From assembly GCA_038321865.1 (NCBI GenBank), contig JBBQFH010000010.1, positions 1 to 64,000 of the forward strand: a DNA stretch of 64,000 bases, in the 5' to 3' direction. Under the pieces are notes generated by a model that saw only the letters and a list, made by a program, of their open reading frames with translations, did not search any database and was not told the DNA's origin. The translations under genes were made by a program, and so were the position numbers. Source of the stretch: Gemmatimonadales bacterium (GTDB lineage Bacteria; Gemmatimonadota; Gemmatimonadetes; Gemmatimonadales; GWC2-71-9). Positions 1,191-13,944 of this stretch are shown here, one piece after another (positions within the stretch are counted from its first letter, which is position 1; each line of letters opens with the position of its first letter).

Positions 1191-1613
1191 GCATCAAGCT
1201 TAGGCATGGCGGGACGGGAGGCCAAACCGGTCCGTTCCGCAGCCGCCCCGAACGGCGGCGTTTTGCTTGCCGGCTCACCTCGTACCGTATGCTGCTGTAA
1301 CACTTCGAGTCACCGATCACCCGCCGGATGGGGAGGGAGAAGATCCACAGTCGTGCATGGCCCATGGGTGCGGGGCGGCGTTGCCGATCGGACGCTGGCC
1401 AGGCTACGGTGTGCCGGTCCGTGTCGCCGGCTTCCTCTAGTCCAACACGTTACTGCACAGGAATTTAAGGTCCAGCTGCCTATCAACCTCGTGCGTGCAC
1501 CGAAATGCGTCGGTTGCTCTCTGGCGGACTGCCTTCCCTCGATAACCGGCCGCCGCACACGGGCTAGCACGACCTGCAGACATTTTCGACAGTTGTGACA
1601 AACCGACCAGCAT

Positions 1614-1628
1614 TGGCACACCGATTGC
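1614..1628 (+). promoter_or_regulatory. sigma-54 (-24/-12) promoter of the pilus operon
   Basis: TGGCAC-ACCGA-TTGC, with GG (1615-16) and GC (1627-28) exactly 10 nt apart, about 80 nt upstream of the first pilin ATG. Confidence 0.8.
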
Positions 1629-1709
1629 CTTCGACCGCCTCGGTTGCCTGGTCGTCATTCCGGCGGTCGGCACGAACGGATCTCCCACATCTGACAAGGG
1701 GTCGTCACC

Positions 1710-2186
1710 ATGCGCCGCTCGCTCACGCTCGCCCTCGCGCTCGTCGCCGTCGCTGCCGGCAGCGCCAGCGCCCAGGGCACCACCGGGTCAATAAACGCGA
1801 CCGCCTCGGTCGTCGCGGCCTTGACGGTGAGTGGTACCAACCTCGTGTTCGGCAACGTCGCGCCGACCTCTTTCAAGACCATCGCACCGGCCAGCGGCGG
1901 GACCTTCACCGTGACCGGCGCCGCCAGCCGGCCGGTGAGCGTGTCGTTCGGCTTGCCGACGACCCTGGGCGCCGCGTCGGTGGCGATCGGCACCTGGACC
2001 GGTCTGTCCAATACCGCGAACACGACTGTCGGCGCCTCGGCGTTGACGCCGTCCGCCAGCGCGCAGACGCTGTCGCTGAGCGGCACCGGCAACCTGTACG
2101 TCTGGGTCGGCGCGACGGTCACCACGACCGCGGCTCCGGTGGGCGGCTACACCGCCCCGGTCACCATGACCGTCGTGTACAACTGA
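1710..2186 (+). CDS. DUF4402/spore-coat-U-like pilin subunit 1 (probable major pilin)
   Basis: Sec signal ending ASA-Q, N-terminal strand SINATASV, LVFG motif, C-terminal GGYTAPVTMTVVYN with penultimate Tyr; Thr/Ala/Gly/Val-rich. Confidence 0.8.
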   Translation: MRRSLTLALALVAVAAGSASAQGTTGSINATASVVAALTVSGTNLVFGNVAPTSFKTIAPASGGTFTVTGAASRPVSVSFGLPTTLGAASVAIGTWTGLSNTANTTVGASALTPSASAQTLSLSGTGNLYVWVGATVTTTAAPVGGYTAPVTMTVVYN

Positions 2187-2207
2187 CATCTCGACGGCCC
2201 CCTGAGT

Positions 2208-2243
2208 CACGCACGGCCGTGGGCATCTCCACGGCCGTGCGTG
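2208..2243 (+). other. Perfect 15-bp intercistronic stem-loop after the first pilin
   Basis: CACGCACGGCCGTGG-GCATCT-CCACGGCCGTGCGTG. Confidence 0.75.
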
Positions 2244-2254
2244 CTTGAGGCCTC

Positions 2255-2743
2255 ATGCGACGCTTCGCGCGCTGTCTTCCGCTCCTCTCGCTGCTGGTGA
2301 GCGCGGTCGGCTCGAGATCGGCGGCCGCCCAGACCGTGGGCACGCTGTCGGCCACGGCGGCTGTGATCCCCGCACTGACCGTGACCGGAACCGCCGATCT
2401 CGCCTTCGGTACCGTCGCGTCGTCGCAGGTCAAGACGGTGGGGCCGGCGGCCGGTGGCACCTTCACCGTGAACGGCGCATCCAATACGCCGGTCGGCATC
2501 ACGTTCGGGCTGCCGGTGACGCTCGGACATCCCGCCGTCGTGATCGGGGCATGGACCGGGCGCACCAACGGCACGCCCAGCTTCGCCACCTCCACTGCCA
2601 TGGTCCCGTCGGCTGCACCGCAGTCTTTCACGCTCAGCGCGAGCGGGCGGCTCTTCGTGTGGATCGGCGCGACCCTCACCACGACGCTGGCGCCTACGGG
2701 GAGCTACAGTGTGCCGCTCACCGTGACGGTTGTGTATAATTAG
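2255..2743 (+). CDS. DUF4402-like pilin subunit 2
   Basis: Paralog of 1710-2186: signal peptide, DLAFG, GGTFTVNGA, LFVWIGATLTT, GSYSVPLTVTVVYN. Confidence 0.8.
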   Translation: MRRFARCLPLLSLLVSAVGSRSAAAQTVGTLSATAAVIPALTVTGTADLAFGTVASSQVKTVGPAAGGTFTVNGASNTPVGITFGLPVTLGHPAVVIGAWTGRTNGTPSFATSTAMVPSAAPQSFTLSASGRLFVWIGATLTTTLAPTGSYSVPLTVTVVYN

Positions 2744-2790
2744 CGCTTCGCCGACACAATCAGTTCGCCCGATTCACGGACCGTCTCCAG

Positions 2791-3270
2791 ATGCGCCTCC
2801 GACAGACCGTTGCGCTCGTGTGCCTGCTCGCCGCCGGGGCGGCCAGGCCGGCGTGGGCGCAGACGTCCGGGTCCACGACCATGACGGGAACCGTGCTGAC
2901 GGCGATCACCGTGACCGGGAGCGACCTCCGGTTCGGCAATCTGCTGAGCACGCAGACCAAACGCGTCGCGGCGGCTGCGGGAGGCCGCTTCATCCTCACC
3001 ATGGCCGCCAGCGCACCGGTGACGATCGCCTACGTACTGCCTGCCTCACTCGGCCCGAACGTTTCACTTGGCGCGTGGGATCTGCGCTCCAACACGATCA
3101 ACGACCCTGCGACCGGGTCGACCGTCGTCGTCGGGTCCACCAGCGGTTCGTTCACCGCGTCCACCGCGACCGGAACGTTGTACCTCTGGATCGGCGCCAC
3201 GGTGACGACCAGTAGCGCCGCGATCGGCTCCTACAGCCGGCCGATCACGCTCACCGTCACCTACAATTGA
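2791..3270 (+). CDS. DUF4402-like pilin subunit 3
   Basis: Signal peptide AWA-Q, DLRFG, LYLWIGATVTT, GSYSRPITLTVTYN. Confidence 0.8.
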   Translation: MRLRQTVALVCLLAAGAARPAWAQTSGSTTMTGTVLTAITVTGSDLRFGNLLSTQTKRVAAAAGGRFILTMAASAPVTIAYVLPASLGPNVSLGAWDLRSNTINDPATGSTVVVGSTSGSFTASTATGTLYLWIGATVTTSSAAIGSYSRPITLTVTYN

Positions 3271-3746
3271 CCGGCGCCCGCGTGGTGATGCGTGCGGTCG
3301 TCCCGCTGCTTCTGCTGTTGCCGGCGAGCCGGGGCGCCGCGCAGACGCTGCAGGTGACGGGGATCCGGGGTGTCGCCTTCGGCCCGATGCTGCCGGGCAC
3401 GAGTGCCGTCGTGTCCCGCACCGACGGCTCCCGTTCGGCGCAGTTCGACATCAAGGGCACCGGCAGCGGCCGGGTGGTGCAGCTGCAGTTCACGCTGCCG
3501 GCCGCACTCTCCGGCCCGGGCGGCGCCGTCGTGCCGCTCTCCTACGCTTCGGCTGATGCCGGCTTCTCGGCGCTGCAGAGCATCGCCAGTCAGACTGCAT
3601 TCGATCCCCGGTCGCCCTATACCGCCACGCTGGCCACCAACGGCCGAGGATCCGTCTTCCTCGGTTGCACGGCGCAGCCGGCGGCCGGTCAGGCCCCCGG
3701 CAACTACACCGCCACCCTCACTCTTACCGTGACCTACTTTCCGTGA
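3267..3746 (+). CDS. DUF4402-like pilin subunit 4 (no N-terminal extension; candidate tip subunit)
   Basis: Signal ending GAA-Q, then directly TLQVTGIRGVAFG; C-terminal GNYTATLTLTVTYFP. Start is TTG 3267 (overlapping the previous stop) or ATG 3288. Confidence 0.75.
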   Translation: MTGARVVMRAVVPLLLLLPASRGAAQTLQVTGIRGVAFGPMLPGTSAVVSRTDGSRSAQFDIKGTGSGRVVQLQFTLPAALSGPGGAVVPLSYASADAGFSALQSIASQTAFDPRSPYTATLATNGRGSVFLGCTAQPAAGQAPGNYTATLTLTVTYFP

Positions 3747-4570
3747 CGCGATACGCCGCACTGCTCGCCGCCCTCGCTCTGCCGGCACCGCTCCTGGCGC
3801 AGGGCGTTTTGATCGCGCCTACAGTGGTGTTCATCGACGCCCGCACTCGCACGGCGTCGCTGATGATCGTCAATCCCAACGAGCAGGCGGCCGAGATCGA
3901 GGTGGGGACGCTCTTCGCCTATCCGGTGACGGATTCCACGGGGCAACTCGTTCTGCGGACGGTCGAGGCGCCCGATTCCACGCTGCCTTCCGCTGCCGCC
4001 TGGGTCAAGCCGTTTCCCCGGCGGATGTCGCTCGCGCCTCACGCACAGCAGACCGTACGCCTCCTCGTGACACCGCCACCGTCGCTCGCCGATGGCGAGT
4101 ACTGGTCCCGCATCGTGGTGACGGCGAGGGGCGGGCAACTCCCGCTCAGCGCCGGCGCCGACACCGGCGGGGTGAGAGTCGGGCTTTCGGTCGAGGTGCG
4201 CACGATCATTCCGCTCTTGTACCGCAAGGGGCGCCAGACGGGCGGCATCGTCGTCTCTGCGCTTCGTGCGCAGCGGCAGGGCGACTCGCTGGTGGTTCGC
4301 GCGCACGTGGAACGGACCGGCACCGCCGCGGCGCTCGGAACTGCGCGCGGCGAGCTGATCGATTCGACCGGGACGTCGCGCGCCGTCTTCTCGGCGCCGG
4401 TTACGGCCTACTACTCCGTCGACCCCCGCTTCACTTTCCCGCTGGATTCGGTGCCCCCGGGTCGCTACCGGCTCCGTCTGGAGATCTCACCGGGCCGGCA
4501 GGACCTCGCGGCCGATGCGATCGTTCCCTTCAGCGCCGTCCGAGATTCCGTGACGGTCCTCCTCCCCTGA
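3743..4570 (+). CDS. Periplasmic pilus assembly chaperone (PapD/EcpB-like)
   Basis: GTG start overlaps the previous TGA. Signal peptide; VLIAPTVVFID..SLMIVNP, FPRRMSLAPHAQQTVRL, LADGEYWSRIVV; second Ig-like domain ending VPPGRYRLRLEI. Confidence 0.8.
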   Translation: MTRYAALLAALALPAPLLAQGVLIAPTVVFIDARTRTASLMIVNPNEQAAEIEVGTLFAYPVTDSTGQLVLRTVEAPDSTLPSAAAWVKPFPRRMSLAPHAQQTVRLLVTPPPSLADGEYWSRIVVTARGGQLPLSAGADTGGVRVGLSVEVRTIIPLLYRKGRQTGGIVVSALRAQRQGDSLVVRAHVERTGTAAALGTARGELIDSTGTSRAVFSAPVTAYYSVDPRFTFPLDSVPPGRYRLRLEISPGRQDLAADAIVPFSAVRDSVTVLLP

Positions 4571-4571
4571 C

Positions 4572-7169
4572 GTGAACCCAGACCGAGGCGCGCGGCGGAC
4601 GGGAACGGCCGTAGTCGCGCTCTCGGTCGCTCTCCTGCTGTCGGCGGGAACGGCTTCCCCAGCGATCGCCCAGGCGGATACGCTGGGCGAATCGGTCATC
4701 GTGGAGCTCCGGCTTGGCGCCGTCGCGTCGCGCACCGTCGAGGGCTATCGCGTCGGCGAACAGGCGCTCATTCCCCTCTCCCAGTTTTTCGATATGGCGG
4801 AAATACGGGCGAGCATCACGCCAGGCGGCCGCGTCACGGCGGCTTTGCAGCCGGAAAACGTACCGCTCGCCATCGATCCCGTGTCGGGTGTCGCGACGCT
4901 GGGGCGCCGCCGCGTCACGACGCCGCCGGGGACGATACGGGTGGTAAACGGCGAAGTATTTTTCCCCGCCGAGCGGCTCGGTGAGCTGCTCGACGCCCCG
5001 ATCTACGTCGACTGGTCGAGTCTCGAGGTCGTCATGCGCGACCCGGGCCCGCTGCCGGTGGCCCAGCAGCTTCGGCGCCGGGCGGCCCGGCTGGCGCTCA
5101 TGCGCGAAGGCGGCGCGCCGGTCGAAGGCGTCCGCCTGCCGGCGGACCGGCCGCGGTGGGACGGCTTTGTGCTGGACTACTCGTTGCTCGCGCCCAGCCA
5201 GGATCCCCTCGGTGCGAGCGCATACGCCGTTCAGGGCGGGGCCGACCTGTTCGGCGGCTCACTCGAGCTCGGCGCGAGCAGCATCGGCCGGGCTGATGCC
5301 GGGGATGTACGGCTCGACGCGTCGTGGCTCGGCGTCTGGCGCGAGAGCCGGGTGCTCAAGCAGCTGCGGCTGGGTGATGGGCTCGTGAGCGGGCCGCGGT
5401 CGAGATCGATGCGGGGGATTTCGGCGACCAATGCGCCGTTCCTGCGGCCCTCGGTGCTCGGCGTGGTTCCCTATGCCGGCCGGCTGCCGGTGGGCTGGGG
5501 GGTGGAGGCCTATCGCGCGGGCCAGCTCATCGCCTTCGACTCGACGGACGCCGAGGGGGACTTCACGATCGGGCTGCCGGTGCTGTATGGGGAAAACCCG
5601 GTGCAGTTCGTCGCCTATGGCCCCTACGGTGAGACGCGGGTGTTCGGCCGCACCTACCGCGTCTCGAGCGCCCTGCTCCCGGCCCGGCGGTTCGAATATG
5701 CGGTGTCCGGCGGGCAATGCCGATTCATCGCCTGCGCGGCGACGGGCAATCTCGACCTGCGCTACGGCGTCTCTCGGCGCTGGACGGTGCAGGCCGGTGC
5801 GGACCGCTTCTGGCGCGATTCGCTGGCCGATCTGTTCCATCCGTATGGTGCGGTCACCGGCAGTGTCACCAATGCGCTCACCCTCCAAATCGAGGGGGTG
5901 GCCAACGCATTCGCTCGCGGCGGGCTTGCCTACGAGCCGTCGCTCGACACGCGGCTGAGCGTCGAATACACTCGCTTCGATACGTCGACGACGGCGCCGC
6001 TCCTGACGCTGCCGGGCCGCCGATCGCTGCTTCAGCTCGCGGGCTTTTATCGCCCCAACCGCGACAGGGATTTTTTCTACTTCGAGGCGGATGCACAGCA
6101 CGCGCGGACCGGCAGCGTGACCACCGACCGTGCACGCGTCGGGGCCTCATTTCAGGCCGGTGCAATCCGGGTGCTGCCATATGCCCGGCTCGAGCGCGAT
6201 GCGTATGACGGGTCGGCGGCACAGGCACGGGGGTTCATCGGCTTCACGACCACCGTGCTCCCGCGCCAGAGCTGGGGCCGGGTGCTGGGACGGACGTTCA
6301 TCCGCGGCGCGCTGGAGGCGCAGGGGCTTTCGGCGATGACCGTCGCCGCTATCGCCATCGCGCGGCCGCTGTCACCGGGCGTGCGGCTGGAAGTCGGCAT
6401 GAACTGGGCGCGCGGCTTTCGGGGTCCGGCGTACACGATGACGCTCTCCTCCTACCTGCGGTCATTCCGCTCCTACACTACCGCGTCGGCCCAGCGCGGC
6501 GCGCCCGCGCAGCTGAGCGAACTGGTGCAGGGGTCCGTCCTGTACGACAGGGTGCGCGGAAATGTGCACCTCGCGCCCGGCCCCTCGCTGCAGCGCGCAG
6601 GCATCGCGGGCCGCGTGTTCCTCGATGCGAACGGTAACGGGCACTTCGACGCGGGAGAGCAGGGACTGGCCAATGTCCGGGTGCAGGTGGGCAGCAACAA
6701 CGCCATGACCGACTCGGCGGGCGCGTACCGCCTGTGGGATGTGGTTCCCTTCGAGCCGGTGGCCATCGCGGTCGACTCGTTGAGCTTCGAATCACCGTTG
6801 TGGGTGCCGGCGCGTCTCGCGGTCATCGTGGCGGCCGGCCCCAACCGCTATACGATCGTGGACATTCCGATCGTGCTCGGCAGCGTCGTGGAGGGAAGAG
6901 TCCTGCGCATGTTCGGCGGGGCGCCCCAGGGCGTGGGCGGAGCATCACTGACGCTCGTCGACGATGCCACCGGCCGTCGCCAGACGATGGCGACGTTCAC
7001 CGATGGATCCTTCTATCTGCTCGGCGTCCGGCCCGGCCGCTACACGCTCAGCGTCGATGAGCGGGTGCTGGATCTGCTGCGCATGCGGGGGGAGCCGCGG
7101 CGGTTCGAGATCAGTGCGAGCGGTGACGGCCCCGGCGCACTCGACCTCACCCTGACGCCGCGGCCCTGA
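4572..7169 (+). CDS. Atypical outer-membrane usher-like protein with C-terminal SdrD-B-like / carboxypeptidase-regulatory-like domains
   Basis: 865 aa with signal peptide. Usher-like central segment (LRLGD..RGISATNAP; VEAYRAGQLIAF..LPVLYGENPVQFVAYGPYGE) and amphipathic beta strands. C-terminal GRVFLDANGNGHFDAGEQGL and TFTDGSFYLLGVRPGRYTLSV. Follows the chaperone. Confidence 0.72.
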   Translation: MNPDRGARRTGTAVVALSVALLLSAGTASPAIAQADTLGESVIVELRLGAVASRTVEGYRVGEQALIPLSQFFDMAEIRASITPGGRVTAALQPENVPLAIDPVSGVATLGRRRVTTPPGTIRVVNGEVFFPAERLGELLDAPIYVDWSSLEVVMRDPGPLPVAQQLRRRAARLALMREGGAPVEGVRLPADRPRWDGFVLDYSLLAPSQDPLGASAYAVQGGADLFGGSLELGASSIGRADAGDVRLDASWLGVWRESRVLKQLRLGDGLVSGPRSRSMRGISATNAPFLRPSVLGVVPYAGRLPVGWGVEAYRAGQLIAFDSTDAEGDFTIGLPVLYGENPVQFVAYGPYGETRVFGRTYRVSSALLPARRFEYAVSGGQCRFIACAATGNLDLRYGVSRRWTVQAGADRFWRDSLADLFHPYGAVTGSVTNALTLQIEGVANAFARGGLAYEPSLDTRLSVEYTRFDTSTTAPLLTLPGRRSLLQLAGFYRPNRDRDFFYFEADAQHARTGSVTTDRARVGASFQAGAIRVLPYARLERDAYDGSAAQARGFIGFTTTVLPRQSWGRVLGRTFIRGALEAQGLSAMTVAAIAIARPLSPGVRLEVGMNWARGFRGPAYTMTLSSYLRSFRSYTTASAQRGAPAQLSELVQGSVLYDRVRGNVHLAPGPSLQRAGIAGRVFLDANGNGHFDAGEQGLANVRVQVGSNNAMTDSAGAYRLWDVVPFEPVAIAVDSLSFESPLWVPARLAVIVAAGPNRYTIVDIPIVLGSVVEGRVLRMFGGAPQGVGGASLTLVDDATGRRQTMATFTDGSFYLLGVRPGRYTLSVDERVLDLLRMRGEPRRFEISASGDGPGALDLTLTPRP

Positions 7170-7176
7170 CGCGGCG

Positions 7177-7929
7177 TCAGGATCCCTTGTGCAGACTGAT
7201 GCTGCCGTTGACCGTCGTCAGGGTCAGCGACCTGCCACCGCCGCCGATGGTGCCATGCAGGCTCCGCGGGCCGAACCGGCCGCTGACGGTCATCGGAAAG
7301 TCGGTGGAGATGTCGCCGTTCGTGGTGCTGGCGCGGACGTCGAGCGCCGCATTCGGGGGAATCGTGACATCGATGCCCCCGTTGACGGTCGAAAACGATA
7401 GCGCTTCCGAGCCGGTGATCCGGCCCATGATGACGTGGACGTCTCCGTTGACGGTCTGCGCTTCGGCGCCGCCGCTGGTTTCCACGCGCACGCCGCCATT
7501 CACCGTTCCCACGGCCGCATCAGCCCGCAACCCCGTGGCTTCGACCTCACCGTTGACGGTGTGGCCTTCGAATTTCACGCCGGCGGGAACCTTCACCGTA
7601 AACGTGACCGTCACGTCGTTGTTGTCATTGTGCTGCCCCCCGTGGCCCCCCTCGCAGCTGTTCCCGCCCCGGCTCGATGGGTAGAGCGCGCAGATCGTCA
7701 CCCCGTCGGCGCCGGTGACCACCTTGATCTCGACGCTCGCCGGATCACTGCGCCGGCCGCGCTTGGTCGCCGTGACCTCGACCTGGTTGCCTGCGGCGGC
7801 AACCGCACGGATGTCGCCGTTGACGCCCCTGATATCAAGCGTCTTGCCCGCCGCGATGACGCCGCTCCAGTGAAAGTCCGGCGTTCCCTGCAGTGTGGCG
7901 GCGATCGCGAGCAGCTGAAGCAGCACCAT
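7177..7929 (-). CDS. DUF4097 (adhesin-like beta-repeat) protein
   Basis: Repeated (T/V)VNG(D/E/G)(V/I) units; C-terminal GTIGGGGRSLTLTTVNGSISL. Confidence 0.85.
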   Translation of the reverse strand: MVLLQLLAIAATLQGTPDFHWSGVIAAGKTLDIRGVNGDIRAVAAAGNQVEVTATKRGRRSDPASVEIKVVTGADGVTICALYPSSRGGNSCEGGHGGQHNDNNDVTVTFTVKVPAGVKFEGHTVNGEVEATGLRADAAVGTVNGGVRVETSGGAEAQTVNGDVHVIMGRITGSEALSFSTVNGGIDVTIPPNAALDVRASTTNGDISTDFPMTVSGRFGPRSLHGTIGGGGRSLTLTTVNGSISLHKGS

Positions 7930-7932
7930 GTT

Positions 7933-8799
7933 CTACCTCCGTGAGCGGTTGTGGCTGGGCGCCCCTTCGGGTCTCACCAGCCGGATCGTTCCCTGAAAGG
8001 ATTCGAGCTCGAGGCGCGCGCTGCCGGAGCCAAGCGTAAGCGAAAAGCGCTTGTTGACCGAGCCTCGCGTGGTGACCGGGAAGTCGGACTCGAAGTCTCC
8101 CTGGTACGTGGACACCGACACCACGGCGCTGGCCCCTTCCTGCACCGATACCGTCAGATCGCCATTGTGGGTGACGAAGCGGTACCGACCCGCCGGCCGG
8201 ATCGGGCCGTCGTACGTCACGTCGCCGTTGACGGTGTTGGCGTCCACGTCGTCGGAGTCCATGCCGCCGAGCTTGATTTCGCCGTTGACCGTCTCCACCG
8301 CCAGCTGGCCGGTGGCGCCATCCACCGTGACGTCGGAGTTGACCGACCCCAGCGTGATCTTGCCGCGGCCGTGGCTCAGCGACACACTCCCATCGACGGA
8401 CTGCAGTGAGATGACCCCATTGCCGCCCTCGACGACGACGTCCCCCTCGACGGTCTGGGCGGCGATGCCGGCCTCGCTCCCGGTTATCCGGATGTTTCCG
8501 TTCACGCCGGTGACGGAGAGATCCATCCAGACCGGCACGGTAATCTCGTAATCGGTATCGTCGTCGCCGCCGTGACGGCGCTGCGCGGAGCCGATCGAAA
8601 TCGTGGTCCCGTGCCGCGCAAGGACGACCGCTTCGCCGTCGCTGCCGCGGGCCTGGACGACGTTGCGGTTCCAGGTGTGAATCGTGATGTCACCGGTGTG
8701 GACGCTCATCTCCAGCCGGTCACCGCGCTGGACGGTGACGGTGGTGTCCGCAACGCGCGCGGACGACAGCGACAGGAGGGCGAGGAGCGCGAGCAGCAC
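7933..8799 (-). CDS. DUF4097 (adhesin-like beta-repeat) protein
   Basis: Repeats TVEGDV, SVDGSV, TVNGEI, TVNGDV, THNGDL. GTG start at 8799 follows an AAAGGA RBS. Confidence 0.82.
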   Translation of the reverse strand: MLLALLALLSLSSARVADTTVTVQRGDRLEMSVHTGDITIHTWNRNVVQARGSDGEAVVLARHGTTISIGSAQRRHGGDDDTDYEITVPVWMDLSVTGVNGNIRITGSEAGIAAQTVEGDVVVEGGNGVISLQSVDGSVSLSHGRGKITLGSVNSDVTVDGATGQLAVETVNGEIKLGGMDSDDVDANTVNGDVTYDGPIRPAGRYRFVTHNGDLTVSVQEGASAVVSVSTYQGDFESDFPVTTRGSVNKRFSLTLGSGSARLELESFQGTIRLVRPEGAPSHNRSRR

Positions 8800-8812
8800 G
8801 ATCGGTGTCCTT

Positions 8813-9511
8813 TCAGCTCTGCGCGGAGGCAAGCGCGGCGACCTGGCGCAGCAGGTCGATCTTACGCCGCATGGTGTGCGCGAGATAGGAGTTCAAATAG
8901 CTGTTGGCCGGATCCTTCTCCAGCGCGCGACGGGCTTCGACGACGGCACTGTCGATGGTCATGAGGTTCTTTTCGATGACGCGGACCGTCGTACTGTCCA
9001 GGCGGCCGCGGCCTTCCCGTAGTACCTGCTGCAGGTCGGCGACGGCGGCATCGTAGCTCTGCTGTGGCGTCTGCCCGGGCCGGTTCCACCCGGTAGGAGT
9101 TGCCATCACCGGCGCCGCGGCCCGGCCCGGCCCGGCCGGCGCCGCGGCCACGATGACCGTTGGCGGAACCCGGAGCAGCCACGCGGCGCCGCCCGACACG
9201 GCGACGAGCAGCACCGCGGCCGCGACCAGCTGCGGCGCGGAAAAGCTGAACCGGCGACGCCCCGCACGAAGTGGCCGCACGGTGCGGGCATCGGACCCAA
9301 TCGTCGCCGCGATCCCGGGCCAGAGATCCGCCGCCGGTGTCCGGTCGTCGAGGGCCCGCGCCCGGCTGACCACCCGGCGGAGCTCGGTCAGGGTCCGGCT
9401 GCACTCGGCGCAGCCGGCGAGATGCCGCTCGAGGCCGGCCCGCTCGGCGGGCAGGAGATCGCCGTCGAGGTACTCCGACAGTCGGGCGGTCCAGGAATCG
9501 TCCATCGTCAT
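8813..9511 (-). CDS. Zinc-finger (zf-HC2) transmembrane anti-sigma factor
   Basis: LSEYLDGDL..HLAGCAEC (HxxxCxxC), one TM helix, helical extracytoplasmic tail; downstream of an ECF sigma. Confidence 0.88.
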   Translation of the reverse strand: MTMDDSWTARLSEYLDGDLLPAERAGLERHLAGCAECSRTLTELRRVVSRARALDDRTPAADLWPGIAATIGSDARTVRPLRAGRRRFSFSAPQLVAAAVLLVAVSGGAAWLLRVPPTVIVAAAPAGPGRAAAPVMATPTGWNRPGQTPQQSYDAAVADLQQVLREGRGRLDSTTVRVIEKNLMTIDSAVVEARRALEKDPANSYLNSYLAHTMRRKIDLLRQVAALASAQS

Positions 9512-9514
9512 GGG

Positions 9515-10090
9515 CTACCGGTCCAGGTGTTGGCGCAGCGCCATCCGCGCGCGGTGCAGTTGCGACTTCGACGTGCCGGCCGCCAGTCCGAGCATGCCGG
9601 CTATTTCTTCGTGGCGGTATCCTTCCACGTCGTGCAGCACGAAAATCTGTCTGGCGCCTTCCGGCAGCCGGGCCAGCGCCTGTTCGAAGTCCATCGACAG
9701 CTCCGGTGCAGGGCGGTTGGCGGAGACCAGCTCCAGCCGCGCGTCGTCGTCGTAGTACCGCTTCCGGCGCGTCCCCAGTTCGGCCCGGCGTGCCAGGACG
9801 ACGTTGACCGCGAGCCGGTGGAGCCAGGTGCCGAAGGCCGACTCGCCGCGGAACGTTCCCAGCTTCTGCCACACCCGCACGAACACGTCCTGTGTCACCT
9901 CATCGGCCTCGTCATCGCTCAGCATGCGCCGGACGAGGGAGTGGACACGGGCCGCATGTGTCCGGTACAGCCGCTCGAAGGCATGGGTGTCCCCGCTGGC
10001 CGCGAGCGCCACCTCGACCGTGTCGGCATTGGCTCGTTCCAGTCCGGGCCGGGGCTTCAGCGTCGGCACTCCAAGGGTCGGCGTGTTCAT
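9515..10090 (-). CDS. ECF RNA polymerase sigma factor
   Basis: [70 protein letters not shown]. Confidence 0.93.
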
Positions 10091-10172
10091 GCAGGGGATT
10101 GGATCGAACAATCGGCCAAAAGGTTGCAGCGGGGAAGGGCGGACTATATTCCGGCATCCCAACCCGTTGCCG

Positions 10173-11840
10173 ATGACCTTCGCGATGCCGCACGCCCCGA
10201 TCGCCGCCCCGCGCGGCCCCGCGCTCTCCTGCAAAGGCTGGCATCAGGAGGCCGCGCTCCGCATGCTGATGAACAACCTCGATCCGGCCGTGGCGGAACG
10301 GCCGGAGGAGCTGATCGTCTACGGCGGCAGCGGCAAGGCGGCCAGAAACTGGGCCTGTTACGAGCGGATCGTCGAGACGCTCCGCCGCCTCGGGAACGAC
10401 GAGACGCTCCTGATCCAGAGCGGCAAGCCGGTCGGCGTGTTCCGCACTCACGAGGAAGCACCGCGGGTCCTCATCGCCAACGGCAACCTGGTGCCGCGCT
10501 GGGCCACCTGGGATGAATTCCGGCGACTCGATGCGCTGGGCCTCACGATGTACGGGCAAATGACCGCGGGATCCTGGATCTACATCGGCACGCAGGGGAT
10601 CCTGCAGGGAACCTACGAGACCTTTGCCGAGTGCGCCCGCCAGCACTTCGGCGGCACTCTCGCCGGGCGCCTGGTGGTCACCGGCGGCCTCGGCGGCATG
10701 GGGGGCGCCCAACCGCTGGCGGCCACGATGAACGGCGCCGCATTCCTGGGCGTGGATGTGGACGAATCCCGCATCCGCCGCCGGGTGGAGTCGGGATATT
10801 GCGACCGCCTCTCCGTCGACCTCGACGAGGCGCTCGCCCTGGTCGCGCGCGCGCGCACCCGGGGCGAGGCGCTGTCCGTGGGGCTGGTCGGAAACGTGGC
10901 GGAGGTGATTCCCGAGCTGGTCCGCCGGGGTGTCGTGCCCGATGTCCTCACCGATCAGACATCGGCACACGATCTCCGGGTCGGGTACATCCCGGCCGGG
11001 CTGACCCTCGGTGCGGCGGCCGAGCTGCGGGAGCGTGATCCGGCCGGCTACGAGTCCCGCGTACTCGACTCGATGGCGGAGCACGTGCGCGCCATGCTGG
11101 AGCTCCGGCGGCAGGGTGCCGTCACCTTCGACTACGGCAACAACCTCCGTGGCCAGGTCGCCGATCACCGGGGGATGCAGGAGGCGTTCGACATTCCCGG
11201 GTTCGTGCCCGCGTTCATCCGTCCGCTCTTTTGCCGGGGTGCCGGTCCCTTCCGCTGGGCCGCACTCTCGGGGGATCCGGCCGATATCGCCGTCACCGAC
11301 CAGGCCGTGCTCGAGACCTTTCCGGAGAACGAGGCGCTCGCGCGGTGGATCCGCATGGCGCAGCAGAAGGTGCAGTTTCAGGGGCTGCCGGCGCGGATCT
11401 GCTGGCTGGAGTACGGTGAACGCGCGGAGATGGGGCTCAAGTTCAACTGGCTGGTGCGGACCGGGCGTGTCCAGGCGCCGCTGGTCATCGGGCGGGACCA
11501 CCTCGACACCGGGTCGGTAGCATCGCCCAATCGGGAGACCGAGGCGATGAAGGACGGCTCCGACGCCATCGCGGACTGGCCGCTGCTGAATGCGCTGCTG
11601 AACACCGCCTGCGGTGCCAGCTGGGTTTCGCTTCATCATGGCGGCGGTGTGGGAATCGGCTACTCGATTCACGCCGGCATGGTCGCCGTCGCGGACGGCA
11701 CCGACATGGCCGATCGCCGTCTCGAGCGGGTGCTCACCGCCGATCCGGGCACCGGGGTGATGCGCCACGCTGACGCGGGCTACGAGCTGGCCGTCGACAC
11801 GGCGCGCGAGCGGGGTATCGACCTGCCGATGCTCGGCTGA
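10173..11840 (+). CDS. hutU: Urocanate hydratase
   Basis: [83 protein letters not shown]. Confidence 0.97.
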
Positions 11841-13069
11841 TGCCGACCGTCCTGCGCAACATCGGCGCCCTCGCGACCTGCCGGCCCGGAGGCCCCCAGA
11901 GCGAGATCCGCATGATCGAACGCGCGGCCATGGCCTGGGACGGCCCGCTCCTGTCGTGGGTCGGGGCGGAAGCGGACCTGCCCGAGGCGTATACGGTCTC
12001 GAACACTGAGGATGCCGGCGGCAGACTGGTCGTACCGGGGTTGATCGACTGCCATACGCATCTCGCGTTCGGGGGCTGGCGGGCCGACGAGTTCGCCCAG
12101 CGCGCGCTGGGACGGAGCTACAGCGAGATCGCCCACGCCGGGGGCGGCATCACGTCCACGATGCGGGCGACGCGAGCGGCCCCGGAGGCCGAGCTGCTCG
12201 CCCGGAGTGAGGGATTCCTGTCGGAGATGGTGGCGCTCGGCGTGACGACGGTCGAGTGCAAGAGCGGTTATGGGCTCAGTCTGGACAGCGAGCTCAAGCT
12301 GCTGCAGGTGTATCGCGCCCTCGCCGCACGGAGCCCGGTGACCATCGTGCCGACGCTGCTTGGAGCGCACATCGTCCCGCCCGAAATGCGCGACCATCGT
12401 GCCCGCTACCTGACGCTGCTGATCGACGACCTGATCCCCCTCGTCGCGCGGGACGGCCTCGCGCGCTGCTGCGACGTCTTCGTGGACGACACCGCGTTTA
12501 CAGTGGCGGAGGCGCGCCGCATCCTGCAGGCGGGCAAGGCGGCGGGGCTGGCGGCAAAGCTCCATGCCGACCAGCTCAGCGACGACGGCGGCGCCCTGCT
12601 CGCGGCCGAGCTCGCGGCGCTGTCGGCCGACCATCTGGAGCACGTCTCTGATGCGGGCATACGCGCGCTGGCCACTGCCGGCGTCGTGGCCGTGAGCCTG
12701 CCGATCGCCTCACTGTACCTGGGCCAGCCGCCGATGCCCGCGCGACGGCTGCTGGCCGCCGGGGTGCCGGTTGCCGTCGCCACCGATTTCAATCCAGGGT
12801 CGGCCCCCAGCTATCACCTGCCGCTGGCAATGACCCTCGCCTGCACGATGCAGCGCATGACGCCGGCGGAGGCGCTCAAGGGCGCCACATCCGTCGCTGC
12901 CCAGGCGCTCGGGCTCGCAGCGACGCACGGCTCGCTCGAAGCGGGGAAGCGCGCCGACTTCGCCGTCATCGACGCCGCCGACGTCGACCAGTGGCTGTAC
13001 CACTTCCGGGCCAACGCATGCGTGCGCACCGTGATCGCGGGCGCGACGGTCTGGGCGGCTCGATCGTGA
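11840..13069 (+). CDS. hutI: Imidazolonepropionase
   Basis: PGLIDCHTHL, GVTTVECKSGYGL, KLHADQL, SADHLE, VATDFNPGS; follows hutU. Confidence 0.95.
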   Translation: MPTVLRNIGALATCRPGGPQSEIRMIERAAMAWDGPLLSWVGAEADLPEAYTVSNTEDAGGRLVVPGLIDCHTHLAFGGWRADEFAQRALGRSYSEIAHAGGGITSTMRATRAAPEAELLARSEGFLSEMVALGVTTVECKSGYGLSLDSELKLLQVYRALAARSPVTIVPTLLGAHIVPPEMRDHRARYLTLLIDDLIPLVARDGLARCCDVFVDDTAFTVAEARRILQAGKAAGLAAKLHADQLSDDGGALLAAELAALSADHLEHVSDAGIRALATAGVVAVSLPIASLYLGQPPMPARRLLAAGVPVAVATDFNPGSAPSYHLPLAMTLACTMQRMTPAEALKGATSVAAQALGLAATHGSLEAGKRADFAVIDAADVDQWLYHFRANACVRTVIAGATVWAARS

Positions 13070-13944
13070 GTGATCCGAGACTGGGTGAGCTGCTGGGCAG
13101 CCAGGCGGCCTCGGCTCGCGTCGTCCTGCTCGGTTTTCCGTCGGACGAGGGTGTACGCCGCAATGGCGGACGGCCCGGAGCGGCGGCCGGGCCGGCCGCG
13201 ATCAGGGGCGCGCTGGGACGATTCACCCCCGACGCGCGGGATCCGTCGCGATTCGCCGAGCTGCTGCGGCACACCGTCGACCTGGGTGATCTCGCGGTCA
13301 CCGGTGATCTCGAAGGGGATCAGCAGCGCCTGGGCGAAGCCGTCGCGCCTCACCTCGATGCCGGCCGGTTCGTCATCGTGCTTGGCGGAGGGCACGAAAC
13401 CGCCTTCGGCCACTTCCTCGGCTATCACCGTCCGGTAAGCATCGTCAACTGGGACGCGCATGCCGACGTCCGGGAGCTCAAGGGCGGCCTCGGCCATTCC
13501 GGCTCACCGTTCCGCCAGGCGCTTGAACATCCGCGCGGGCTCTGCCGCGGGTATACGGTCGCCGGCCTGCAGCCGCACTCGGTCCCCGCCGAGCATCTGG
13601 CGTACGTACGTCAGCACGGACGGGCGATCTTCCGGGACGAGCTGCAGGACGGCGATGCCGTCGCCGCCGTCTACGCCGACCTCGCTCCGACCCTGGTCTC
13701 GTTCGATCTCGACGCCGTGAACGGGTCCGAGGCACCCGGGGTCAGCGCGCCCGCAACGGACGGCCTCACGTCCGCGATGTGGCTGCGTGCCGCGTACCTG
13801 GCCGGCGCCGACGCGCGAGTGACGTCGGCCGATGTGGTGGAACTCTTGCCGGCACATGACCCGGATGGCCGGACCGCCCGGCTGGCGGCGCTCACCGTCT
13901 GGCAGCTGCTGCGGGGCATCGCCGCGCGGAGCCGATCACCCTGA
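13066..13944 (+). CDS. hutG: Formimidoylglutamase (arginase family)
   Basis: GFPSDEGVRRNGGRPGAAAGP, LGGGHETAFG, WDAHADVR, SFDLDAV..APGVSAP. GTG start overlaps the hutI stop. Confidence 0.92.
   Translation: MSDPRLGELLGSQAASARVVLLGFPSDEGVRRNGGRPGAAAGPAAIRGALGRFTPDARDPSRFAELLRHTVDLGDLAVTGDLEGDQQRLGEAVAPHLDAGRFVIVLGGGHETAFGHFLGYHRPVSIVNWDAHADVRELKGGLGHSGSPFRQALEHPRGLCRGYTVAGLQPHSVPAEHLAYVRQHGRAIFRDELQDGDAVAAVYADLAPTLVSFDLDAVNGSEAPGVSAPATDGLTSAMWLRAAYLAGADARVTSADVVELLPAHDPDGRTARLAALTVWQLLRGIAARSRSP

Follow-up and report, generated by a model that had tools for sequence, protein, structure and literature searches.

Archaic (sigma) chaperone-usher (CU) pili, among them Acinetobacter Csu and Pseudomonas CupE, are encoded by several pilin genes, a chaperone gene and an usher gene, in that order. 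According to PMC10104325, their pilins carry a highly conserved disulfide. Other features of the class are a two-domain tip adhesin, a twin-hairpin (A'-A'', B-B') clinch and an usher that groups with CsuD and CupE5. In PMC4654587, Arg89 on strand F1 of CsuC and EcpB is named as the trait that best characterises non-classical chaperones. FimI and PapH, which are known to terminate fibres, are complete pilins, and the absence of a P5 pocket is believed to account for termination by PapH (PMC10673952). Here we describe six genes at positions 1710-7169 of a 64,000-nucleotide stretch, termed the window, at the start of contig JBBQFH010000010.1 (assembly GCA_038321865.1) of a Gemmatimonadales bacterium. 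They very probably form a complete, highly diverged CU pathway that assembles a fibre of DUF4402-type pilins, an appraisal that covers the transcription, chaperoning and polymerisation of the subunits jointly.

A reading of the window made from the sequence alone (the sequence-only reading) had described six co-directional genes with short gaps or overlaps, and all six were found as + strand open reading frames (ORFs). Four encode pilins: pilin 1 (1710-2186, 158 aa), pilin 2 (2255-2743, 162 aa), pilin 3 (2791-3270, 159 aa) and pilin 4 (~3288-3746, 152 aa from the likely ATG start). They are followed by a two-domain periplasmic chaperone (3743-4570, 275 aa from a probable GTG start that overlaps the pilin 4 stop) and by the usher (4572-7169, 865 aa). 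The four pilin genes are spaced 68, 47 and 17 nt apart; the chaperone gene overlaps that of pilin 4 by 4 nt, and a single nucleotide separates it from the usher gene. This order is kept across the 78 loci that we fetched, the titles of which name Gemmatimonadota in 77 cases and Bacillota in one. Among 581 usher homologues, the best 120 share 49-71% identity with the usher of the window. The operon of the record labelled Bacillota (L059) likewise has four pilins, and its usher is 71% identical; as ushers require an outer membrane, the label is likely wrong and the record likely a mislabelled bin.

A chaperone profile matched 78 of 301 Gemmatimonadota genomes, including 58 of the 125 in the host's own family. 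The CU system would thus be present in about a quarter of the sampled genomes of a phylum in which Pfam finds no usher above cut-off (0/151 genomes). A second copy of a pilin, chaperone or usher gene was not found in the 3.4-Mb host genome, in which the system is single-copy. Two other genomes (G182 and G271) gave several chaperone matches each, some of them weak (E 1e-43 to 1e-9), and may hold distant paralogous systems.

Pilins, chaperone and usher

The four pilins are small secreted paralogs with common motifs, as had been read from the sequence: each carries a signal peptide, and FG, G-x-Y and T-V-x-Y are invariant in their alignment. The mature chains of pilins 1-3 are 44-54% identical to each other and 27-29% identical to pilin 4. 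Their likeness to DUF4402, which had been proposed beforehand, was seen in Pfam matches that stay below cut-off, at E 1e-4 for pilin 2 and 7e-5 for pilin 4 but not for pilins 1 and 3, and in matches at E<=0.01 in 119 of the 137 aligned family members; NCBIfam returned nothing significant for any of the six proteins. At least two Cys residues occur in just 2 of the 137 aligned pilins, and a single one matches SCPU. The expected lack of a Csu-type disulfide therefore stood, but its restriction to subunits 1-3 did not, since none of the four pilins of the window has a Cys pair. Such subunits would likely give a disulfide-free surface fibre.

An AlphaFold2 (AF2) model of pilin 1 (pLDDT 91) shows a CU-pilin-like, incomplete Ig sandwich preceded by residues 1-17, which form no strand. 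An N-terminal extension with an alternating pattern, the putative donor strand (~1773-1817 in pilin 1), is conserved in 91 of the 137 aligned pilins. Most Foldseek rows for pilin 1 are CU pilins (FimF, CsuA/B, the PapG pilin domain and CfaB), no row reaching E<=0.001. In VIA comparisons it matched CfaE with a Z of 7.9 and CsuA/B (7zl4) with a Z of 7.6 and a root mean square deviation (rmsd) of 2.7 over 107 residues.

The sequence-only reading had treated the four pilins as like units. This did not hold, as pilin 4 is a single domain without the N-terminal extension: 10 residues stand ahead of its FG motif, compared with 22-23 in pilins 1-3. The distance from the predicted cleavage site to FG is bimodal over 175 pilin matches, with 8-16 residues in 65, 21-26 in 104, 31 in one and five that could not be parsed. 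A pilin of the short type lies directly 5' of the chaperone gene in 63 of 65 relatives, and the two exceptions are one locus at a contig end and one parser failure. A subunit that lacks a donor strand has no place in a chain other than the first, and pilin 4 is therefore likely the initiating, single-domain tip. A two-domain adhesin is missing from the operon, as had been noted: no such ORF is present there, and a conserved co-directional adhesin candidate was not recognised in the flanking ORF clusters of the 78 loci, an unlinked adhesin still being possible. The gene after the usher is convergent in the window and usually in its relatives. Of the 78 loci, 33 encode an extra donor-bearing pilin between the chaperone and the usher; the operon of the window has no such post-chaperone pilin. 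Pilin 1, whose gene is the first after the promoter and has a third-position GC content (GC3) of 0.92, is likely the major subunit. The other two donor-strand-bearing pilins are likely a minor or alternative shaft subunit (pilin 2, DUF4402-like) and an adaptor or minor subunit (pilin 3).

The chaperone matches PapD_N at E 0.007, which is below cut-off, and below-cut-off matches were obtained for 8 of 43 chaperones. We predicted the complex of the chaperone with pilin 1, together with three controls. It scored 0.85, the best control 0.00; of 157 solved complexes and 215 mismatched pairs, 116 and 2, respectively, reach the mark applied to this score. The runs agree in at least 94% of contacts, and the pLDDT of either partner is at least 86. 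In the model, chaperone residues 127-137 run parallel to residues 126-136 of pilin 1 and complete its last strand, which is the pose of donor-strand complementation. The chaperone is thus predicted to donate its G1 strand (encoded at ~4178-4210, + strand) to the pilin. Residues 1-9 of the chaperone and 14-31 of pilin 1 also belong to the predicted interface, and residues 198-202, 210 (Arg, 95%) and 234-236 of chaperone domain D2 touch the pilin. Non-classical chaperones are marked by a Tyr/Arg anchor in D2 and, through a register shift, a hydrophobic P0; here a Thr (88%) occupies the probable P0 position, which makes it polar, as PMC4654587 describes for beta chaperones. On strand F1, Arg104 (codon 4109-4111, + strand) is invariant in 43 of 43 chaperones. 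It is absent from the named interface residues, and its alignment to EcpB Arg89 is non-significant (E 0.31).

The AF2 model of the usher, built from 86 of 129 alignment rows, has a pLDDT of 95. It comprises a predicted N-terminal domain (~4689-5036), a 24-strand barrel (~5157-6548; residues 163-626, strands counted as DSSP elements) and a plug (~5454-5663) that follows strand 6, where six strands are inserted ahead of strand 7, all on the + strand. Two beta-sandwich domains with SdrD_B-like and CarboxypepD_reg Pfam matches form the C-terminus. The top 15 Foldseek rows are all FimD or PapC, the best FimD at E 2.9e-28, at 11-16% identity. VIA gave a Z of 19.2 and an rmsd of 9.9 over 615 residues; the best non-usher reached 12.4. 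These models agree with the earlier view of the large protein as an usher, and also with its description as an unusual one: Usher (PF00577), TcfC and CooC_C gave no match above cut-off in the window usher and 50 homologues (0/51), apart from two weak Usher matches, whereas control ushers matched strongly (YhcD to Usher at E 9e-151; EcpC to TcfC and CooC_C at E 6e-19 and 7e-21). The usher profile matches 2,048 clusters at 50% identity with E<=1e-30, some of which are repeat proteins recruited through the C-terminal domains. Cys383 and Cys388 (5718-5735), in the barrel just past the plug, form a close pair kept in at least 90% of 129 ushers, in contrast to the pilins and chaperones, which have no disulfides.

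Several observations weigh against a CU pathway. The structural support consists of predictions throughout, and the complex may have passed through memory of solved chaperone-pilin structures. The fold match of the pilin is middling (Z 7-8), and its top VIA row is an archaeal (Pyrodictium) cannula subunit with a Z of 8.5. Moreover, searches of PDB sequences with the usher, chaperone, pilin and mini-subunit (see below) or their profiles returned only SdrD/NOMO-type C-terminal-domain matches or noise, and those with the pilin, chaperone and usher profiles found no CU protein.

Probable transcription signals and a candidate terminator

The motif of the proposed sigma-54 promoter is present: a -24/-12 consensus, TTGGCAC-N5-TTGC, lies at 1613-1628 (+ strand), and it is the sole perfect match in the window and one of three in the 3.4-Mb genome. 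A perfect match was seen in 7 of 100 shuffles. Among relatives with enough upstream DNA, the strict pattern recurs in 44 of 55 and GGCAY-N5-TTGC in all 55; the latter has 65 matches in 1.98 million strand-bases, promoter sites included. The host genome contains rpoN and ten strong activator-domain matches.

The relatives also have two palindromic, putative operator boxes upstream of the promoter, a distal one near -120 in 37 of 56 loci and a proximal one near -39 in 41 of 56, compared with 0.3% in shuffles, scored by a position weight matrix (PWM) that was trained on the same regions. The underlying pattern YGTC-N9-GACR occurs 55 times upstream, whereas no other spacer length between 5 and 13 gave more than 2 occurrences. 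In the window, a degenerate copy of the 17-bp palindrome TGTCAA-N5-TTGACA (1575..1591, no strand) has the same offset from the promoter GG (about -40) as in the relatives and is a candidate site for an enhancer-binding protein. It counts against this assignment that the palindrome scores 6.8 with a PWM threshold of 10 and that it is the proximal one only, a distal box being missing from the window. The boxes may bind the activator of the promoter. A genome-wide PWM scan found 28 sites at a score of at least 14, none of them beside GGCAY-N5-TTGC, and the regulon and cognate activator are for this reason not assignable. We considered a FleQ-type site and did not adopt it; we take its spacer to be of 8 bases, and that of the boxes is strictly 9.

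An RNA hairpin is predicted in the intergenic region 3' of pilin 1 (2187..2254, + strand; -44 kcal/mol, z -5.96, 0/200 shuffles). A hairpin with z<=-2 follows pilin 1 in 48 of 56 loci and occurs at the control position, after the tip pilin, in 3 of 56. It likely raises pilin 1 over the downstream genes, and its conservation argues for pilin 1 as the major subunit.

A small divergent gene lies upstream of the operon in 47 of the 54 loci that have at least 800 bp of flank. Its product, which we term the mini-subunit, has a signal peptide and a mature chain of 64-85 residues, although one open frame reaches 162. Inspection of the alignment suggests an N-terminal strand, a helix, one further strand and a C-terminal strand that ends in Tyr or Phe, without an Ig body. 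The register of the N-terminal strand, G-x-hydrophobic-x-A-x-A-x-V, is that of the pilin donor strand, and the C-terminal register, hydrophobic-x-hydrophobic-x-hydrophobic-x-Y, is that of the last pilin strand. We collected 432 homologues, and those with a taxon name are hypothetical proteins of Gemmatimonadota. Pfam has no family for them, and the clusters returned by an Atlas search were unnamed, the closest ones with a name scoring below 0.8. The mini-subunit was detected in 29 of 301 genomes, only in one family of the phylum (f1), and all 29 lie among the 77 other chaperone-positive genomes, kin that do not count as independent. Of 47 loci, 34 have a sigma-54-like site that faces the mini-subunit gene. 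Its distance to the pilin promoter is mostly 197 bp, a spacing that places both operator boxes between back-to-back promoters.

In the host, a probable mini-subunit gene is unlinked to the operon and lies on another contig (G000:C7:27227-27517, locus L082:2728-3018, + strand). It encodes 73 mature residues and was matched at E 1.6e-6 with the full profile. A sigma-54-like site, a near-palindrome that matches on both strands, stands 60 bp upstream, at C7:27167. The neighbours of the gene are a short ORF and a second one that we take to be CsbD-like and RidA-like, respectively. Syntenic genes of similar build with a sigma-54-like site were present in two of the five genomes examined (G319 and G321), and a search with the C7 query found no orthologue in G320, G322 and G323. 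A two-motif regular expression, written after the sequences had been seen, selected 4 of 39,770 host ORFs, namely pilins 1-3 and the C7 gene. Against the assignment of the C7 copy speak its E of only 0.0016 with the mature-only profile (the next match being at 0.87), the fact that the 301-genome survey missed it, and the lack of any match when it was used as a single-sequence query against 40 relatives. The kinship with pilins is likewise weakened, as the mini-subunit profile aligns to them over 13 columns only (E 0.005, probability 7%).

Based on these features, an enhancer-binding protein would activate transcription from the -24/-12 site, and pilin 1 would become the abundant shaft subunit through the hairpin that follows it. 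The secreted pilins would be caught by the periplasmic chaperone, with G1 parallel to their C-terminal strand, as in the predicted complex. Pilin 4 would go in first and cap the tip in place of a two-domain adhesin; pilins 3, 2 and then many copies of pilin 1 would polymerise by donor-strand exchange at the usher, by analogy with the known pathway, the order of pilins 2 and 3 being a guess. The mini-subunit, seen as a candidate groove-less chain terminator, would then be delivered by the chaperone, fill the last pilin and offer no groove itself, so that the fibre is ended and anchored. For this last step and for the terminator role itself, we regard the case as possible, with a chance somewhat short of even.

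It is also quite conceivable, at less than even odds, that the mini-subunit does something else: it could be a periplasmic cap or scavenger against premature polymerisation, a factor that gates or primes the usher, or a linker that can still take up a donor strand. Its helix and two strands could form an acceptor surface together with the chaperone, the gene can be unlinked and has its own sigma-54-like promoter, it was detected only in family f1, and the donor-bearing pilin found between chaperone and usher in many loci could be the terminator instead. However, the mini-subunit keeps both ends needed for delivery by the chaperone and insertion into a pilin, and in the window there is no post-chaperone pilin to fill the terminator role. 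How the growth of non-classical CU fibres stops is not addressed in the literature passages found. A terminator without an Ig body, different from the full pilins FimI and PapH, would be a structurally distinct design and a natural minimal donor-strand cap.

Relation to known chaperone-usher classes

The operon resembles archaic pili in the pilin fold, the gene order and, likely, the non-classical F1 Arg. It differs from them in that it lacks a pilin disulfide, the SCPU domain and a two-domain tip adhesin, has an usher that Pfam Usher does not recognise, and has a donor-less single-domain tip and the mini-subunit instead. With the alternate (alpha) pili CFA/I and ECP it shares the pilin fold (the CfaE pilin domain and the CfaB rows), possibly the chaperone F1 Arg, which aligns weakly to EcpB Arg89, and a CarboxypepD_reg match, which is weak in the C-terminal domain of EcpC; in contrast to them, it has no TcfC, CooC_C or EcpB_C matches and no large adhesin. 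The classical type 1 and P pili have a like usher architecture, the parallel pairing of G1 with strand F and a near-terminal Tyr in the pilins. Apart from the low identity (12-16% in structural alignment), the difference lies in the two basic D1 residues by which classical chaperones anchor the subunit carboxylate (Arg20/Lys139 in Caf1M), of which there is no counterpart: a conserved Arg is missing from the first 12 mature residues of the chaperone (A1 strand), and position 138, at the end of G1, is G or P, positions assigned by our own mapping onto the PapD numbering. A single-domain tip as proposed for pilin 4 is known from the FGL polyadhesins, where the available text of PMC5700814 describes it for SafD; the ushers of Saf and Afa/Dr, however, belong to the classical gamma-3 clade, and the likeness is likely convergent. 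The system leans towards the non-classical side. Because tested hallmarks of the classical (PF00577 usher, basic anchor), archaic (pilin disulfide, two-domain adhesin) and alternate (TcfC/CooC_C) classes were not found, we file it under none of them.

That the locus is merely a very diverged member of the archaic or alternate clade, and no separate lineage, appears rather unlikely to us. The invariant F1 Arg is placed like the non-classical anchor of PMC4654587, as far as its excerpts describe it, the closest CU pilin folds are CsuA/B and CfaE, and operons called 'non-canonical archaic' are said to be widespread. In an Atlas feature search, usher clusters came up at 0.92-0.93, and the alpha-type (TcfC) cluster tied for first with a PF00577-type cluster at 0.93, which we treat as a lead only. 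On the other hand, the rarity of Cys pairs and SCPU matches departs from the conserved disulfide of archaic pilins, and neither an above-cut-off usher match nor a two-domain adhesin is there. Moreover, profile comparisons with EcpA, EcpB, EcpC, YhcA and YhcD were non-significant save for 44 YhcD columns at E 0.002, the usher reaching E 0.42 with EcpC.

We also put forward, tentatively and well short of an even chance, a wider proposal: DUF4402 operons would stand apart from the alpha-sigma scheme as a CU lineage of their own, in which the Gemmatimonadales fibre is bracketed by two complementary 'half' subunits, a tip with a groove but without a donor strand and a minimal terminator, the ~70-residue mini-subunit, which has donor and chaperone-binding strands but lacks a groove. 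Fibre length would be set transcriptionally, as the divergent sigma-54 promoter of the mini-subunit gene has two operator boxes in common with the pilin operon in most relatives.

The family has distant members on plasmids of Sphingopyxis, Polaromonas and Pseudoalteromonas, where DUF4402 or hypothetical genes are joined by a chaperone and a 'carboxypeptidase regulatory-like/SdrD' usher. The non-proteobacterial nature of the system, expected from the sequence, therefore applies to the host, which its homologues place in Gemmatimonadota, but not to the family. A plasmid-borne proteobacterial chaperone was matched by the profile at E 3e-12, tblastn finding no plasmid match to the chaperone, and the Polaromonas record labels its own a 'fimbria/pilus periplasmic chaperone'. 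As in the window, a pilin with a short N-terminus stands ahead of the chaperone in the Polaromonas operon. The plasmid operons differ in having no sigma-54 motif within 260 bp upstream (0/3) and a chaperone motif G-E-Y-R-x-H/V instead of G-E-Y-W-x-R. Our literature search found no published account of them. The Polaromonas JS666 operon is flanked by IS6 transposases and encodes, between two DUF4402 genes (L092:2984-3604), a 206-aa hypothetical protein that starts like a donor strand and ends like a pilin around an atypical middle part; it may be an analogue of the mini-subunit.

The fibre most likely serves adhesion or biofilm formation. It is unlikely, though less so than an usher-free process, that the same machinery makes an amorphous coat or a capsule-like polyadhesin, similar to Caf1 or Myxococcus MXAN_3885, instead of a discrete pilus. 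The operon without a two-domain adhesin, followed by a convergent gene in the window and most relatives, and the small, disulfide-free subunits would suit such a product, and a capsule and a spore coat made by CU systems are known from the passages found of PMC13734109. Yet a tip subunit without a donor strand, seen in 63 of 65 loci, and one to three specialised minor subunits fit an ordered fibre built from tip to base. Extracellular polymerisation without an usher, as a cannula- or TasA-like donor-strand fibre, the large protein being an unrelated outer-membrane transporter, would accord with the cannula row and the lack of a Pfam Usher match but is highly improbable, as the usher fold spans barrel, plug and C-terminal domains, the large protein is constantly linked to a PapD-like chaperone, and the chaperone-pilin pose is the CU pose.

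If the loci indeed encode a diverged CU pathway, DUF4402 gains a proposed role, and the conserved layout of promoter, operator boxes and hairpin makes the subunit stoichiometry testable. What this analysis adds is the mini-subunit, the rule of a tip pilin without a donor strand, and the conserved arrangement of sigma-54 site, operator boxes and hairpin. The literature search found no paper naming DUF4402, PF14352 occurred in none of the papers listed, and no listed title appeared to concern this system; subscription journals and supplements were outside its scope, so that an earlier description is possible.

Flanking genes

Convergent on the usher gene, a block at 7177-10234 (- strand) encodes an extracytoplasmic function (ECF) sigma factor, a zinc-finger anti-sigma factor and two secreted DUF4097 proteins; about 14-17 related loci likewise have this DUF4097/ECF block after the usher. 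A convergent gene for a hybrid sensor kinase (within L006-L074, - strand) lies 3' of the usher in many of the 78 loci and forms the largest neighbour cluster, with 49 loci; the kinase is a possible partner of the activator. Further downstream in the window, ~10180-13944 (+ strand) holds genes that, judging from their translations, we presume to serve histidine utilisation (urocanase, imidazolonepropionase and formimidoylglutamase). Upstream of the operon lie tRNA-Pro(GGG) (170-243), a gene for an FKBP-type peptidyl-prolyl isomerase (318-767) and an SCP2-like gene (777-1190), and an FKBP homologue is found upstream in 11 related loci.

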